Assembly (NCBI GenBank): GCA_018711625.1
Contig: DVID01000001.1
Location: forward strand, 4,610 to 68,609
Source of the DNA: Candidatus Limicola stercorigallinarum
GTDB lineage: Bacteria > Actinomycetota > Coriobacteriia > Coriobacteriales > Coriobacteriaceae
Length of the DNA: 64,000 nucleotides
Direction of reading: 5' to 3'
Positions 49,197-59,616 of the stretch are shown piece after piece (position 1 is the stretch's first letter; each line of letters opens with the position of its first letter). Under the pieces are notes generated by a model that saw nothing but the letters and a program-made list of their open reading frames with translations, was not told the origin of the DNA and made no database searches. The translations under genes and the position numbers were made by a program.

Positions 49197-51014
<1,818 letters not shown>

Positions 51015-51863: not shown

Positions 51864-51901
51864 CGCCTCCCTTGGCCGAGACGCATCGGCCAAGGGAGGC
51901 G
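51864..51901 (-). terminator. Terminator after the SLH protein gene
   Basis: 16-bp stem cgcctcccttggccga / tcggccaagggaggcg followed by TTTCTTT on the minus strand. Confidence 0.8.
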
Positions 51902-51942: not shown

Positions 51943-54534
51943 TCACGCCATGCGCATGAGCACGGTGGCGAGCTGGGCGCGGGAGAGCACGCCGCCCGGG
52001 GCGAGGGTGCCGCCGCCGAGGCCGGAGAGGACGCCCTCTCCCACGGCCCACTCGAGGGCGGGCACGGCGTAGGAGGAGGCGTCGTCCCCGTCGGGGTACC
52101 CGGAGAGGTCGCCCGAGCCCCCGGGCTCGCCGGCGGCGCGCCAGAGGATGGTGGCGAGCTGCTCGCGGGTCACGGGGTCCTCGGGGCCGAAGTTGGCGCC
52201 GTCGCCGTAGCCCTCGACGATCCCCTGCTCGGCCGCCCACGCCACGGCCTCGGCGTAGAAGGCCCCCGGGTCGCAGTCGGCGAAGCTGGGGCCGCCCTCG
52301 GCCTCGGGCTCGCCCGCCTGGCGCCAGAGCACCGTGGCGAGCTGGGCGCGGGAGAGGGCGCCCTCCGTGCCGAACGCGCCGGAGCCGTCCCCGTAGCCCG
52401 CCATGAGGCCCGAGAGCCACGCCCACCGCACGGCCTCGGAGTACCACTCGCCCTCGATGGCGTCCGGGAAGGGCAGGGCGTGGCTGCGGGAGTCGAGCGC
52501 CACGAGCCACTCCGAGGCGTGGTCGATCGGCAGGCGCGCCGCGCCCCCGCCGTCGACCCGCGCGGACGCCTCGTACCCCAGCGACCCGGCCTCCTCGTCG
52601 TAGCGGTAGAGGTTGGCGACGAGCCCCGCGGCGTCCTTTCCTAGCGGCGCCACGAGCGTGAGCTCGAAGCCGAAGGGGCCGTCGTGCCCGAGCGACACCT
52701 GCACGGAGCCGGACTCGCCGGTGACGAGGTTCACCACGTCCGCGGGGATGGCGTCGCCGCCGAGCGAGGCGCCCAGGTCGGTGTCGCCGTGCCCCGCGCC
52801 CTCGGGCACGTCCCCGCCGTAGATCTCCCAGGAGACGCCGCCGCCCATGTCGAGCGCGAGCGTCACGTCGCGGCCGGCGAGCTCGTCCAGCACCTCGCCG
52901 GGCAGCACGGTCTTGCCGTCCATGTCCACCGTGACCGTGGACCCGGGCTCGGCGCCCACGATGTCGTCCGCCACGTCGCCCCAGTCGGGCCCGGTCGGGC
53001 GCGGCGGAATATAGACACCCGTGACGGTCACCAGACAGGTTGCCGTCATGCCACCATCCGCAGTGGTGACGACAATAGTGGCAGTGCCGGGCGACACGGC
53101 GGTCACGTTGCCGCTGCTGTCCACCGTGGCAACGGACGAGTTATCGCTCGTCCACGTCACGTTCTTGTTGGTGGCGTTGGCGGGAGCCACCGTAGCCGTG
53201 AGGGCGAGGGTGTTGGGGGTACCGTTGTAGTACAGGTGCGCCTGAGTCTGGCTGAGGGTCACTCCGGTGACAGAAACCGTCGCAGCAGTCACGGTGACGG
53301 TGCAGACGGCTTTTTCTTCGCTGCCGTCCGCAACGGTGACGGTGATGGTAGCTGTGCCCGCGCTCACGGCGATCACTTTGCCGCTTGTGTCTACCGTGGC
53401 GACACCGGGGGCGCTGCTTTCCCAGGTCACGGATTTTTCGGTGGCGTTGTCCGGCGTTATAGTGGAGATAAGGGTTTCTTCGTCGCCCACATCAAGGGTC
53501 AAGCTGGTCTTGTTCAGCTCAACTTTGGTGACTTTGTAAATCACGCTGTCGCCCAAACTTTCCGCAAGGCTCTCGCCCAGCGTGCCGCCATCCACGATTA
53601 CCTTGTGGCCATTGGCGTCCAGACTTGCTCCATCGCCCGGCGTCAGGCTCTCGTCCTCGCCGATGGTCAAATTCTCCTGCAAGGTCGCATCGCCGTACAC
53701 GGTGCCGGTGCCGTTATCAAAGACGATACCAACACTGTCATCAGCAGGGGAAACTTTCTTGAGATCTTGTAGCAATCCGGCACCGATCCCACCCCCTCTT
53801 GCGTCCACGATGGCACTGTTGCTGATGGTTAAGGTCGTAGTATTAGGAACGGTACCACTGCCGCTAGAATCATATAGAATCCCTGGAGACCCGCTGGCAG
53901 TCAGGCTGCCGCCATCCACAGTCAGAGCGGCGGTCGAACTATTGCTGGATTGCACATTGACACCATAACTGGTCCCCGTTGCTTCAACCTTGGCGTTCTG
54001 GATAAACAAAGCGGCATCGCCGTTGTTGCTCTGAACCCAGATTCCTGGATTACTAGAGCCGCTGGCATCCAGACTGCCGCCGCTTTCGCTTGTGATGGTC
54101 AGGGTGGCTTCGCCAGTAGAACTGGCCAACACATAGATCCCCTTGCCGACCTCTGCGATTGTATTGGTGCCCTCCAATGTGATGGTCAACTCCGCAGCGC
54201 CGTTCTGATTGTGCACGCCAATGGCAGCGCCAGCGACATAAGTGCTGGTATTTAAGGGTACTTCCTCTTTAATCGTGGCGTTGTGCAAGGTCAGGGTATT
54301 ATTCGCTACGTCATAATGGATATAGTTGTCCGTCGGTGTGTCTCCGCTTGTGTATGCGGTGACATTTCCATCACTGTCCGTTGTCCAGTAGCCGGTAGAA
54401 GAGATTTTTACACCGCCGACATAAATCACCTGGTAATCCGGCGCAGCCGCCAGCGCCGTGGCGGGGAGCATCGTCAGGAACATCATCATCGTCGCCAGAA
54501 GCGCGCCGACCTTCCACCACGTTCTTCTCGCCAT
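51943..54534 (-). CDS. Secreted S-layer-homology (SLH) anchored surface protein: signal peptide, beta-rich passenger, two Big_2 Ig-like domains, linker domain, three SLH repeats
   Basis: Signal MARRTWWK...ALA; two VTxVxL...VTWxSS...VATVD.SG.V.AVS.GTATI repeats; three repeats of type WYSEAVRWA...G...SRAQLATVL. Confidence 0.88.
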   Translation of the reverse strand: MARRTWWKVGALLATMMMFLTMLPATALAAAPDYQVIYVGGVKISSTGYWTTDSDGNVTAYTSGDTPTDNYIHYDVANNTLTLHNATIKEEVPLNTSTYVAGAAIGVHNQNGAAELTITLEGTNTIAEVGKGIYVLASSTGEATLTITSESGGSLDASGSSNPGIWVQSNNGDAALFIQNAKVEATGTSYGVNVQSSNSSTAALTVDGGSLTASGSPGILYDSSGSGTVPNTTTLTISNSAIVDARGGGIGAGLLQDLKKVSPADDSVGIVFDNGTGTVYGDATLQENLTIGEDESLTPGDGASLDANGHKVIVDGGTLGESLAESLGDSVIYKVTKVELNKTSLTLDVGDEETLISTITPDNATEKSVTWESSAPGVATVDTSGKVIAVSAGTATITVTVADGSEEKAVCTVTVTAATVSVTGVTLSQTQAHLYYNGTPNTLALTATVAPANATNKNVTWTSDNSSVATVDSSGNVTAVSPGTATIVVTTADGGMTATCLVTVTGVYIPPRPTGPDWGDVADDIVGAEPGSTVTVDMDGKTVLPGEVLDELAGRDVTLALDMGGGVSWEIYGGDVPEGAGHGDTDLGASLGGDAIPADVVNLVTGESGSVQVSLGHDGPFGFELTLVAPLGKDAAGLVANLYRYDEEAGSLGYEASARVDGGGAARLPIDHASEWLVALDSRSHALPFPDAIEGEWYSEAVRWAWLSGLMAGYGDGSGAFGTEGALSRAQLATVLWRQAGEPEAEGGPSFADCDPGAFYAEAVAWAAEQGIVEGYGDGANFGPEDPVTREQLATILWRAAGEPGGSGDLSGYPDGDDASSYAVPALEWAVGEGVLSGLGGGTLAPGGVLSRAQLATVLMRMA

Positions 54535-54660
54535 ACGACACCGTCCCTTCCGCCTGCGCCGCAATGCGGGCGCGAAACGCAGCTTGACCTCCCCATTGTT
54601 GTTTAGGAGCTGAGGAGGGCCTCTACCCGGCGAGACGGTGGGTTTGGGGAGGGTCGCGCC

Positions 54661-55880
54661 CTACGAGAGCAGAAAGCGGCCGAGCTCCTTGCGGCTGCTC
54701 ACGCCGAGCTTCTTCAGGGACTTGGAGATGCACTCCTTCACGCGGTTGACCGAGATGCCCATGTGCGCCGCGATCTCGGCGTTGCTCCACCCGCGCGCCG
54801 CGAGCATGCAGGTCGCGAACTCGGTGGTGGTGAGGTTGTCGGCCACGTCGTCGCCGGTGGCGGGGTTGTGAACGCGGCGCCATCCGGCGGAGAAGCGGTA
54901 GGTGATGTCGATGATGCGGCGGAAGTCGTCGGGCCAGGCGGGCTTGATCGCCGCCTCGAGCATGCCGCCGAGGAGGCCGTGGTGCTCGGCCAGCGGCTCG
55001 ATCAGGCCGTCGGGGCGGGCGAGGTCCCAGGCCGCCAGCAGGTGCTCGCGCGCCTCGTCCGCGCGGCGCCGCGCCATGAGGTCCATGACGGCGACGAGGT
55101 GCAGGTAGATGGCGGGGATGGGATAGGAGTCCTCCTGCATGGCGAAGGCGCCCAGCACCAGGCCCAGGCTCGTCTGGTGCTCGCCCTCCAGATAGAGGCG
55201 GTGCGCCTGCACGTAGCAGGCGAAGAGCCTCAGGCCCGGCGGCAGGAGGGGCAGCGCCTCGCCCGCGGGCGGCAGGCCCTCGGGCTCGGGGATGTGCAGA
55301 AGCACGCTCGCCGTGCGCGCCACGAACGACGCCGCGGCGGCCGCCTCAGGGGAGGACCCCCCCCGATGGGCTTCTCGATGCCGGCGCGGGCGCGCGCGAG
55401 GGCGGAGCGGGCGTCGTTGATGCGGTCGAGGGCGAGGCTCGCGTACGCGCAGATGAGGCAGGCCGAGAGGCGCGCTCCTGCGTCCTCGCTCGCAAGGAGC
55501 GGACGCGCGAGGGCGGCCGCCCGCGCGGCGTCGCCGGTGAAGTAGGCGAGCTCGGCCAGCGCCACGTCGCGGCGCGGGCCCTCGGGGAGCGACTCCGCGT
55601 ACTCGCGGGCATGGCCGGGGGCAAAGGGCGCGTTCATGAGGGGCATGAGGGTGTCGCACGACCCCTGCCGGCGCCGGGGGACCGGGGGCCTCTCGTCCCC
55701 GGGGGCCGCCTCGTTGCGGGAGCGCCGCAGGTCGGCGGGCTTGACGGCGCCCTCCGGCACGCGCCAGACGCGGCCCACGCGCTCGGCTCCCGGGACGCGA
55801 CCATGAGCGCACATGAGCTGCACGGCGCGCGGCGTCACGTGCCAGCGGCGCGCCGCCTCCGCGGCAGAGATGAACTCCAT
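54661..55880 (-). pseudogene. HTH (excisionase-like N-terminus) + C-terminal LuxR HTH regulator, frameshifted in a G8 tract (plus-strand C8 at 55357-55364)
   Basis: Frame A: MEFISAAEAARRWHVTPRAVQLMC...IEKPIGG; frame B continues SSPEAAAAASFV...LTTTEFATCMLAARGWSNAEIAAHMGISVNRVK. G9 or G6 joins them (G9 gives 406 aa). Confidence 0.85.
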
Positions 55881-55994
55881 GTGGCACCCCCATTCACATA
55901 CATCGATAGCTTACCAGAGCCGCACCGGGGCATTCCTTCGCTCGTGCGAAGACTTGGACAGGGATTTTGGGAAGTTTTTTGCGCTGGACGGCGG

Positions 55995-56551: not shown

Positions 56552-57862
56552 ATGACGTCAACGAAGGACATCAGGCCCGAGGGCTACATCCCTCGCATAG
56601 TGGACGCAAAAGTCGAGCGGTTCCTTCGCGTGTTCGGCGCCGTCGAAATCGCAGGGACCAAGTGGTGCGGCAAAACATGGACTGCGCTTGAGCACGCCCA
56701 AAGCGTAAGCTACGTGGATACCTCGCTTGCCCTTGCACGGGATGACCCCTCGGCGATGCTTATTGGCGAGCGACCACACGTCATCGACGAGTGGCAACGC
56801 GTGCCGGCAATATGGGATGTTGTACGGCACGAGGCCGATCGCGTGCGTGGCCTCAGAGGCGCATGGATACTCACGGGCTCTTCGACCCCTCTCCCAAGGG
56901 ATGCGAAAAGTCCGGACGAGCAGCCCAGCCACAGCGGCGCGGGCAGGATCGGCCAGGTGAGGATGCGTCCGATGACCCTCTCTGAATCGAGAGATTCCAC
57001 GCGTGCCGTATCCCTCTCTGGGCTCTTCCGCGGCGAGTTCGCACCTTCCCAAGTTGAGACAAGCGCGACGAAACTCGTTGACCTCGCCTGTCGAGGGGGC
57101 TGGCCGGAAGCCGTCGACCTTTCCGCCGAGGACGCCCAACTCATCGCTCGAGAATACCTGCGGCTGCTGCGCCGTGAGAGCATCCCCAAGCAGGGCAAGC
57201 GCGGAGACGTAGCGGAACGCCTGCTCTTTTCGCTTGCTCGCAACCTCGGTCAGTCTGCCACCTACAAGACCCTCATTGCGGACATGAGCGACGCCTCGGC
57301 AGCGGGCATGGTCTCTGAGAACACGCTCGTATCCTACCTTGCGCTACTCAAGAGCATGTACCTGCTCGAGGAGGTGCCCGGCTGGCAGCCTCCGGCGCGA
57401 GCGGCCGGTCGCGTGCGCACCAAACCTAAGCGCTACCTGGCCGATCCATCCCTTGCCGTGGCCGCGCTGGGAATGTCGCCTTCGGCCCTGCTCGACGACT
57501 GGCAGACGTTTGGGATGGTGTTCGAGGCCATGTGTATGCGTGACCTGATGGTCTATGCCGACGCACTCGACAGCGCAGCAGACGTGCCGGTGCGTTACTA
57601 TCGCGACGACTCAGGCCTTGAGGCCGACGCTGTGGTCGAGCTATCCGACGGACGGTGGGCCGCCTTCGAGTTCAAGGTTAGCGAGGCGCGCACGGAGCAG
57701 GGCGTGGCGAGCCTCCGGCGCCTGCGGGAGCGCGTCTGCTCCAACCCCTCCGCCCGAATCCGTCCGCCCGAGTTCATGGCAGTCGTCACAGGGGTGTCCC
57801 ACTACGCACGGCGCGTGGAGGACGACATCTACGTAGTGCCTCTGGCAGCGCTTACGGCATAG
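56552..57862 (+). CDS. AAA_14-type ATP-binding protein with C-terminal DUF4143 domain
   Basis: YIPRIVD, AGTKWCGKTWT P-loop, HVIDEWQ Walker B, ILTGSS, RMRPMT, KRYLADPS, YYRDDSGLEADAVV...FEFK. Confidence 0.85.
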   Translation: MTSTKDIRPEGYIPRIVDAKVERFLRVFGAVEIAGTKWCGKTWTALEHAQSVSYVDTSLALARDDPSAMLIGERPHVIDEWQRVPAIWDVVRHEADRVRGLRGAWILTGSSTPLPRDAKSPDEQPSHSGAGRIGQVRMRPMTLSESRDSTRAVSLSGLFRGEFAPSQVETSATKLVDLACRGGWPEAVDLSAEDAQLIAREYLRLLRRESIPKQGKRGDVAERLLFSLARNLGQSATYKTLIADMSDASAAGMVSENTLVSYLALLKSMYLLEEVPGWQPPARAAGRVRTKPKRYLADPSLAVAALGMSPSALLDDWQTFGMVFEAMCMRDLMVYADALDSAADVPVRYYRDDSGLEADAVVELSDGRWAAFEFKVSEARTEQGVASLRRLRERVCSNPSARIRPPEFMAVVTGVSHYARRVEDDIYVVPLAALTA

Positions 57863-58027: not shown

Positions 58028-59509
58028 CTACTTGTGGTAGTAGCTGCTGCGCTCAAACTTGGGCTCGCAGCACACGTTGATGCCGAGTTTCTTCAGGAGC
58101 GCCTCGTCCGTGGCCGAGATGATCACCGAGAAGAACGCGTCGCAGCCGCGCAGCTTGGGCAGGCCCGCGAGCACGCGCGCCGCCACCTCGCTTGTAGCCG
58201 AGGTGATGGAGAGCGCAATGAGCGTCTCGTCCGGATGCAGGCGCGGGTTGCGGCTTCCCAGCTGCGAGGTCTTAAGGCGGCTGATGGGCTCGATGGCCTC
58301 GTTGCTGATAACCTCAAGCTCCAGGTCCACCCCGGTGACCGTCTTGAGCGCGTTCATGATGAGCGAGCTCGCAGCACCCAGGCGCGTCGAGGTCTTACCG
58401 GTGACCACCGTGCCGTCGGGCAGCACCATGGCACCCACGGGCGCCCCTGTGGTCTCCTCCTTGAGGAGCGCCGCCGAACGCGCCGGTGAGAAGTCCTTGG
58501 TGACGCCGGCCTTCTTCATGATCATCTTGAGCTTGTCTACGTGATCCTGCCCCATGCCGGTGCGCTTCACGTTCACGGCCGCCGTGAAATAGCGGCGCAC
58601 AATCTCCATGAGGGCGGCCTCACGGCACGCCTCGTCATCGGTGATGGCAAAGCCCACCATGTTCACGCCCATATCCGTAGGGCTTTGGTAGGGGCTCTCG
58701 CCAGAGATCTTCTCCATGAGTGCGCGCACCACGGGGAACGCCTCAACGTCGCGGTTGTAGTTCACCGTGGTCTTGTCGTAGGCCTCCAAGTGGAAGGGGT
58801 CAATGATATTGGAATCGTCCAGGTCGACCGTCGCCGCCTCGTAGGCGATGTTCACCGGGTGCTTGAGCGGCAGGTTCCACACCGGGAAGGTCTCGAACTT
58901 GGCGTAGCCGGCGGCCACGCCGCGGCGATGCTCGTGGTAGAGCTGCGAGAGGCAGGTAGCGAGCTTGCCCGAACCAGGGCCGGGTGCCGTCACCACCACA
59001 AGCGGGCGCGAGGTCTCCACATACTCGTTCTTGCCGTAGCCGTCCTCCGAGACGATGAGGTCGATATCGTGCGGATAGCCCTCGATGGGATAGTGCAGCT
59101 TGCACACAATGCCCAAATCTGCCAGACGGCGGCGGAACACATCGGCCGCAGGCTGGCCCGCATACTGGGTGATCACCACAGCCGCCACGGCAATGCCGTT
59201 TGTGCGGTAGATATCCGCAAGGCGGAGCACGTCCTCGTCGTAGGTGATGCCCAAATCGCCGCGGGCCTTGTTCTTCTCGATGTCGTTGGCGTTGATGGCG
59301 ATGATCACCTCGACGTCCGCCGCGAGGCTCTTGAGCATGCGGAACTTGCTATCGGGAGCAAAGCCGGGGAGCACGCGGCTCGCATGGTAGTCGTCAAAGA
59401 GCTTTCCGCCAAACTCCAGGTACAACTTGCCACCAAACTGCGCAATACGTTCCTTGATGCGCTCAGCTTGCAGCTCGATGTACGTATCGTTGTCGAATCC
59501 CTTACGCAT
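58028..59509 (-). CDS. DUF1846 domain-containing P-loop protein
   Basis: LYLEFGGKLFDDYHASRVLPGF, VVTAPGPGSGKLATCLSQLY, YAKFETFPVWNLPLKHPVN, QSPTDMGVNM. Confidence 0.9.
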   Translation of the reverse strand: MRKGFDNDTYIELQAERIKERIAQFGGKLYLEFGGKLFDDYHASRVLPGFAPDSKFRMLKSLAADVEVIIAINANDIEKNKARGDLGITYDEDVLRLADIYRTNGIAVAAVVITQYAGQPAADVFRRRLADLGIVCKLHYPIEGYPHDIDLIVSEDGYGKNEYVETSRPLVVVTAPGPGSGKLATCLSQLYHEHRRGVAAGYAKFETFPVWNLPLKHPVNIAYEAATVDLDDSNIIDPFHLEAYDKTTVNYNRDVEAFPVVRALMEKISGESPYQSPTDMGVNMVGFAITDDEACREAALMEIVRRYFTAAVNVKRTGMGQDHVDKLKMIMKKAGVTKDFSPARSAALLKEETTGAPVGAMVLPDGTVVTGKTSTRLGAASSLIMNALKTVTGVDLELEVISNEAIEPISRLKTSQLGSRNPRLHPDETLIALSITSATSEVAARVLAGLPKLRGCDAFFSVIISATDEALLKKLGINVCCEPKFERSSYYHK

Positions 59510-59616
59510 GGGGTAAAGCTCCTCTCAGGTAGCACTCGGTCGCGCGTCCTCAATAACCCGTCAAGTATAGCCGAGCATGCCGCCGCACGTTTGTGCAAGG
59601 CCTCAAAACATCACGA

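Follow-up and report, generated by a model that had tools for sequence, protein, structure and literature searches.

The regulator gene that precedes an SLH surface-protein gene in the window (the whole 64,000-nt stretch of DNA that was analysed) is broken by a frameshift that falls in a run of eight G's, and we consider it probable that this run is a slipped-strand contingency switch, making the regulator phase-variable, with the window captured in the OFF state. Specifically, the combination of a length-polymorphic tract, purifying selection on the coding sequence downstream of it and a conserved pairing of the regulator with a surface protein fits such a switch caught OFF. A phase-variable switch in its OFF phase had also been the proposal of an earlier sequence-only reading of this DNA. 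The frameshift in the G run, the ON and OFF lengths among relatives, the selection downstream and the conserved pairing speak for that proposal, whereas its further description of the locus as a mobile module is not supported. The features of the locus are listed in Table 1.

Table 1. Features of the regulator and surface-protein locus, in window coordinates
Feature	Position	Strand	Description
AAA_14/DUF4143 ATPase gene	56552-57862	(+)	just upstream of the regulator
Inverted repeat CTTCGC-N4-GCGAAG	55936..55951		56-71 nt upstream of the regulator ATG; candidate operator
Regulator gene	54661..55880	(-)	winged HTH_17-like domain, linker, TPR-like helical repeats, LuxR/GerE HTH; 406 aa if G9, frameshifted here
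216-aa ORF of the present state	55230..55880	(-)	winged HTH, linker, first helices of the repeat domain, 41-aa out-of-frame tail
G8 homopolymer, coding strand (plus-strand C8)	55357..55364	(-)	Gly-Gly-Gly loop, codons ~173-175; site of the -1 frameshift
Out-of-frame C-terminal part	54661..55356	(-)	remainder of the TPR-like domain and LuxR HTH; intact, with dN/dS indicating purifying selection
Regulator-SLH intergenic region	54535..54660	(-)	blocks and ribosome-binding site conserved where surface proteins differ
Surface-protein gene	51943..54534	(-)	intact; signal peptide, two Big_2 Ig-like domains, three SLH repeats; presumed target
Intrinsic terminator-like hairpin	51864..51901	(-)	16 pairs, T-rich tail; closes the two-gene unit

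The regulator is spread over two minus-strand frames. The first begins at the ATG at 55880 and ends as the 216-aa ORF; the second is open from 55893 to a stop at 54661 and carries the GerE/LuxR HTH at its C-terminus. Upstream of the tract, the translation of the second frame is rich in Arg, Pro and Gly and matches nothing, and its long open stretch there is explained by the high G+C content. When both frames were aligned to an intact 406-aa homologue (P0004), residues 1–174 and 174–406 showed 96.6% and 96.1% identity, respectively, in frames -1 and -3, with the junction exactly at the G8 run and no further stop or shift in the gene. The sequence-only reading was therefore right that both halves are otherwise intact and that the G8 run is the sole break. 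It was equally right that one added G restores a 406-aa protein, as the gene measures 1220 nt and 1221 nt correspond to 406 codons and a stop. The ORF and the profile matches likewise agree with its description of the present state, in which a 216-aa product retains the N-terminal HTH while the C-terminal LuxR domain lies out of frame.

With respect to the tract itself, homopolymers are prone to error and the source genome (G000; 1.96 Mb, 60% G+C) is a 49-contig assembly derived from chicken-gut metagenomes, so that a sequencing or assembly artefact hiding a true G9, a possibility that the sequence-only reading had itself named, has to be weighed. Logan contigs from three separate runs of the source study (X1, X2 and X3) nonetheless cross the tract with 0 differences, at word depths of 19.6, 17.5 and 8.9, and all give G8; as these contigs are consensus sequences from which minor variants are dropped, G8 stands for the majority length in each sample. 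The exact 216-aa product is also present on 9 ENA contigs, which together with the three run assemblies makes a consensus error very unlikely, and many unrelated assemblies, at 15-18x coverage, also show OFF lengths. An artefact is thus nearly excluded, and G8 is the real state of this strain.

In terms of architecture, the C-terminal GerE/LuxR HTH (PF00196; residues 353-405 of the C-terminal frame) is detected at 28.4 bits against a cut-off of 23.5, whereas the N-terminal HTH_17 match (PF12728; residues 4-45) is weak at 21.7 bits, under its cut-off of 27, and the precomputed HTH_17 matches of homologues are weak or faint. The LuxR/GerE part of the dual-HTH architecture put forward earlier is accordingly firm, while its excisionase-like part is less so. 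An AlphaFold model of P0004 (pLDDT 88, pTM 0.77) places a strand, two helices and a beta-hairpin at residues 3-42, consistent with a winged HTH, followed by a disordered linker (~50-75), an all-helical repeat domain (80-338) and a LuxR-type HTH (352-405). The loop encoded by the tract (residues 167-177) connects two helices and has the lowest confidence inside the fold, which points to a site where sequence can vary freely. A sequence search of the PDB matched the LuxR domain alone, to DNA-binding domains of the NarL/VraR type, and the TPR matches that Foldseek returned, to APC subunits, AimR and Rap, were weak (E ~0.01-0.02, TM 0.3-0.45; TM 0.36-0.45 for AimR). Judging from the model, the middle domain is TPR-like and probably binds a ligand or partner; because the structure matches are weak, we assigned it to no solved family.

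The regulator belongs to a large family (2974 matches among the candidates scored) centred on Atopobiaceae and Coriobacteriaceae names, namely Olsenella, Thermophilibacter, Enorma and Collinsella, among which we found no characterised member. Its closest likeness in layout is to regulators of the MalT/LAL and RRNPP types, which combine a helical-repeat domain with a DNA-binding HTH, and MalT shares the C-terminal position of the LuxR/GerE HTH. Unlike these types, the regulator described here has no NTPase domain and carries a second, N-terminal winged HTH, its fold matches to the RRNPP proteins AimR and Rap are weak (E ~0.01, TM 0.3-0.45), and no peptide gene was noticed. LuxR regulators of the MalT-like kind are usually activators.

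We compared the tract among relatives on the coding strand, directly after the codon ATC or GTC, in a close clade (79-99% amino acid identity to the window), a second clade (~73%) and a third clade consisting of other genera of the family. G9 (406 aa) and G6 (405 aa) are in frame, and G8, G10 and G5 are out of frame. Within the close clade, the G8-TCC of the window (OFF) stands beside a G9-TCC with identical flanks (ON) in L175 and L176, whose protein (P0148, labelled Thermophilibacter mediterraneus) matches the two halves of the window's regulator at 171/173 and 224/229 residues (98-99% amino acid identity). Other ON alleles of this clade are G9-TTC (run X7 and the T. mediterraneus type strain), G6-TTC (Olsenella sp. 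An293), G9-ACC (L003 and Collinsella ihumii GD8) and G6TTGG (L001 and L002). Other OFF alleles are G10-TTC (L004 and P0157), G6-TCTCC (G001, a same-genus genome whose product is labelled Enorma phocaeensis) and G8 (L035 and L036). The second clade is divided between G9 in four samples (L042-45, ON) and G10 in five samples, including an Atopobiaceae MAG (L037-41, OFF). In the third clade, G003 has G9 (ON), another genus has G8 (labels G014 and L009, OFF) and G009 carries GGGAGGGG (ON).

The comparison of tract length among homologues, suggested as a check by the sequence-only reading, thus yielded G5, G6, G8, G9, G10 or an interrupted run at one and the same codon. Its worry that homologues might have no G run at all is dispelled by the G8, G9 and G10 alleles of the relatives. 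The tract is not universally kept, as several lineages have shortened or interrupted it; the interrupted tracts (L001, L002 and L011) are all ON, and paralogues and outgroups have no tract at the corresponding site. The protein database further holds 10 N-terminal truncated products that end just past the tract-encoded glycines. When genome contigs were searched with a looser flank-plus-tract pattern, the matches came mostly from unrelated genomes, with 4 relevant loci among the matches listed, and the flank-plus-tract pattern had no match in JGI metagenome contigs. No pair of strains identical but for tract length was found, the nearest ON alleles having 98-99% protein identity.

The history of these alleles was examined on a maximum-likelihood tree of the regulator genes from which the tract region had been removed. 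Every OFF allele has an ON sister on this tree, and there were therefore at least five independent frameshifts, all at the tract. Pairwise dN/dS ranged over 0.19-0.57 in the N-terminal half and 0.10-0.31 in the half that follows the break, where pairs of OFF alleles gave 0.15-0.18. By these ratios, purifying selection acts on both halves of the regulator, and the low values of a half that goes untranslated in OFF alleles argue that no drift has occurred there and that the OFF states are recent or transient.

These data bear directly on the main alternative, namely that the window holds a plain pseudogene: the G run would be a mutational hot spot, the regulator lost for good, and the other OFF alleles independent losses without adaptive value, to be purged gradually. 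Three samples and 9 contigs agree on G8 as the consensus, so the OFF state is stable in the window strain at the level that is visible, and a consensus of G8 in every sample leaves room for a fixed pseudogene in this particular strain. The interruption of the tract in some lineages and the genuine decay of one related lineage (L171-174), in which a G5 tract is joined by a ~120-nt deletion in the regulator and the surface gene is missing in several samples, also lean this way. Against permanent loss, however, no second stop was found in either half of the 5/5 OFF alleles for which both halves were analysed, their untranslated halves are as constrained as the OFF-OFF ratios above indicate, and the surface-protein gene, the likely target, is intact in OFF strains. 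Moreover, GGG makes up just 18% of the Gly codons in these regulator genes, yet eight to ten G's have been kept by three clades separated by dS of ~0.5-0.9, G9 among them, and the genome as a whole avoids runs of six or seven G's while keeping eleven of eight to ten. On balance we regard a plain pseudogene as an unlikely reading, if one to be taken seriously for this strain, and the pattern across the family speaks for a tract that functions as a switch.

In the decaying lineage, a DUF4143 fragment takes the place of the surface gene, beside a HepT/MNT toxin-antitoxin pair (L171-L174; e.g., L171:987-2942). The joint loss of the surface gene and decay of the regulator in this lineage fits a functional tie between both genes, albeit as a single case. 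Many 227-aa products of the P0005 cluster were considered as separate OFF alleles and rejected as such, since the DNA of P0162 proved to be that of the decayed lineage, with G5, the deletion and the missing surface gene. The remaining 227-aa products of the cluster are probably the same as P0162 and were left out of the event count for that reason.

A further alternative is recoding, in which the G8 run would be read through by -1 ribosomal frameshifting or by RNA-polymerase slippage, giving both the 216-aa and the full-length products. A run of eight G's does have the form of a slippery heptamer, and homopolymers of ~8 nt can support transcriptional slippage (see reference 44 in PMC9187656). 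Programmed frameshifting was nonetheless set aside, as no stable RNA structure follows the tract (z = -1.07), and no fixed geometry is conserved among the relatives, the closest of which are simply in frame (G9 and G6) while others are shifted by +1 (G10). Recoding is accordingly very improbable in our estimation, and we return to slipped-strand switching as the preferred account of the tract.

Turning to the gene that such a switch might control, the SLH gene (ATG at 54534) lies 126 nt downstream of the regulator and is co-oriented with it, no terminator was found between the two, and a strong terminator follows the SLH gene (51901-51864). This agrees with the earlier statement that the regulator sits directly upstream of the SLH gene in the same orientation. 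The same order, a regulator followed on the same strand by a secreted Ig-like surface protein, was found in 16/16 intact loci examined (L001, L003, L035 and L175; both tandem units of L037 and of L042; An293; T. mediterraneus; and, among species representatives, G003, G008, G014, G021 with two loci, and G040). The partner proteins carry Big_2, He_PIG, I-set, InlB-B-repeat or GDSL-lipase domains, with SLH repeats in most loci and none in those of G014, G021 and G040, and the intergenic region and signal peptide are conserved even where the passenger domains differ. As the regulator lies upstream of a surface protein in every intact locus, the switch most likely sets the expression of that protein, and control of the SLH gene by the regulator in the window is proposed from this gene order.

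The genome encodes ~15 SLH proteins and a single copy of this regulator. A search of the 95%-complete assembly found no paralogue, and compensation by a second copy was rejected on that ground. Upstream of the regulator, the inverted repeat of Table 1 is conserved in L001 and L003 and occurs once in the window against 0.05 matches expected; we propose it as a candidate operator. Tandem arrays of two regulator and SLH surface-protein units each are present at L037:1124-9822 and L042:601-8808. In these arrays, the first regulator (396 aa) lacks the G tract and is followed by a GDSL-lipase/SLH protein; the tract is found in the second regulator, which is followed by a large Ig-like/SLH protein.

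The chromosomal setting of the pair speaks against a mobile element. On the minus strand of the window, genes for arginine deiminase, OTCase, a DcuC-type carrier and DUF1846 come ahead of the regulator, with the AAA_14/DUF4143 gene on the opposite strand between DUF1846 and the regulator, and pyrG, a XerC/D-type recombinase, mraW and a PBP gene lie past the SLH gene. The module occupies the same chromosomal place in relatives, including L003, L035, L124 and Collinsella ihumii GD8, and no integrase or transposase is attached to it, the sole recombinase nearby being the XerC/D-type gene beyond pyrG. A mobile genetic element was rejected on these grounds, namely the housekeeping flanks (DUF1846 and pyrG), the shared site and the lack of attached mobility genes; the mobile character ascribed to the module by the sequence-only reading is accordingly not supported.

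Sequence identity along this region is uneven. The regulator (window 54659-55980) is 90-93% identical at the nucleotide level to L003 and Collinsella ihumii GD8, and the flanking pyrG and DUF1846 regions (50080-50884 and 58049-59528) are 81-85% identical to the same genomes. The greater likeness of the regulator may reflect recombination between species at a variable chromosomal locus. In L001 and L175, the regulator is flanked by the AAA_14/DUF4143 gene together with a YafQ-like toxin gene.

To place the tract among the homopolymers of its genome, G/C runs in G000 were counted by length. Their distribution is bimodal, with 1774 runs of 5, 99 of 6, 4 of 7, 5 of 8, 4 of 9 and 2 of 10, and the 11 runs of at least 8 compare with ~0.2-0.3 predicted by the decay rate. 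Across the order, long runs of G are common, and they are frequent in 24 relatives, so that part of the excess may reflect mutation bias rather than selection.

Two of the other long tracts lie at genes for surface proteins. A G9 tract at C23:47207-47215 (L031:3001-3009) sits between TTGAC and TAACTT boxes ~80 nt upstream of the gene for a 1001-aa SLH protein and is, by its position, a candidate promoter-spacer tract for phase variation. Another G9 tract, at C47:139543-139551 (L033:3001-3009), lies in the 5' end of a gene for a 1457-aa FctA/SpaA/DUF7601 pilin-like adhesin; in the assembled sequence, the frame of an upstream ATGATG runs into a stop just past the tract, and G10 would join the ATG to the signal peptide. 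This pilin-like gene closely resembles the G-tract switches of Bifidobacterium breve pili. Orthologues of the genes with the C23 and C47 tracts were not found in 16 relatives. The remaining long tracts noted in G000 are in the 3' end of an Acyl_transf_3 gene (C10:7286), in the 5' ends of an MFS transporter gene (C48:4575) and a Band_7 gene (C11:56269), and upstream of a serine dehydratase gene (C5:18281).

The mechanism that we propose for the regulator tract is as follows. The poly-G run, which encodes a Gly-Gly-Gly loop on the surface of what would be a dedicated transcription regulator, would be hypermutable, gaining and losing G's through slipped-strand mispairing during replication, a process that we expect to be reversible within a clone. 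With G9 or G6 the frame is kept and the full protein (406 aa) results, whereas with G8 or G10 translation meets an early stop past the tract, and the product lacks the LuxR domain as well as the C-terminal half of the sensor-like repeats. The window strain, with G8, would be OFF. The switch would set the expression of the adjacent Ig-like surface protein, possibly through activation of this neighbour by the full-length regulator, and its likely role, with a possible benefit to the cell, is to diversify a surface that faces pressures from, for instance, phage, immunity or adhesion in the gut.

Pathogens provide the best-known cases of phase variation through homopolymer slippage; Bordetella bvgS is an example of frameshift switching at a poly-C homopolymer in a regulator gene. 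The closest counterpart to the present locus is mga of group A Streptococcus, where the M protein encoded next to the regulator is no longer made once a poly-C tract (c.1571C[8]) has lost one C (Lei et al. 2023, PMC10330708). Reversion has been observed in mice, and database genomes include both ON and OFF lengths (PMC10330708). In both cases, a homopolymer lies inside a stand-alone regulator, slippage by one base shifts the frame, and the gene of a surface protein is adjacent. The likeness is mechanistic only, as the families are unrelated: Mga has PRD domains and the present regulator HTH_17, TPR-like repeats and a LuxR HTH, with no Pfam or NCBIfam match to Mga-type HTH or PRD domains. The tract of mga is near the 3' end of the gene and that described here is mid-gene; mga belongs to a pathogen of the Bacillota, in contrast to a gut commensal of the Actinomycetota; and switching and its effect on the target have been shown experimentally for mga, whereas the present locus is known from sequence.

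A second likeness is to Bifidobacterium breve UCC2003 and other bifidobacteria, in which intragenic G-tracts in sortase-dependent pilus genes undergo replication slippage (Penno et al. 2022, PMC9187656). These are also high-GC gut Actinomycetota with coding G-tracts of at least 8 nt whose length differs between strains, and slippage there turns a surface structure ON and OFF, but the tract is in a structural pilus gene instead of a regulator. Homopolymer frameshifts in the regulators flgR and flgS of Campylobacter jejuni (Hendrixson 2006, 2008, reviewed in PMC8355987) likewise occur in a gut coloniser, in which they switch a surface structure or regulon. The flgR/flgS tracts are short A/T runs and, by the account of the review, not truly reversible (PMC8355987). 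Both flgR/flgS and bvgS are two-component systems that control a whole regulon, compared with one adjacent gene here.

With respect to novelty, the sequence-only reading knew of no such system in Coriobacteriia, and our literature search likewise found no published report of such tracts in Coriobacteriia or Collinsella; the mechanism as such is well known elsewhere, as in mga (PMC10330708). We view the locus as a real and well-supported candidate contingency locus that operates by a mechanism already known.

A broader and more tentative picture, which we hold to be possible but rather doubtful, is that in the Atopobiaceae and their relatives each HTH_17-TPR-LuxR regulator is hard-wired to one variable Ig-like, usually SLH-anchored, surface protein, with a subfamily of these regulators toggled singly by poly-G slippage. 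Taken together with the poly-G tracts that other surface genes carry in promoters or at 5' ends, they might make up a 'phasome' of the whole lineage, through which a gut commensal could vary its surface combinatorially. Because the N-terminal winged-HTH protein continues to be made from OFF frames, the tract might even alternate between two DNA-binding proteins instead of simply between ON and OFF.

For gut commensal Actinomycetota, the literature that we found holds an experimental demonstration for bifidobacterial pili only, and the present locus would extend homopolymer phase variation to the Coriobacteriia and to a regulator rather than a structural gene. A large uncharacterised regulator family, with thousands of homologues, would gain a testable target in the adjacent SLH or Ig-like surface protein. 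In practical terms, 'frameshifted' genes of this kind should neither be annotated as dead pseudogenes nor 'corrected' as homopolymer errors, and strain-level metagenomics of such tracts could show which surface proteins come under positive choice within the host, as the ones selected there.
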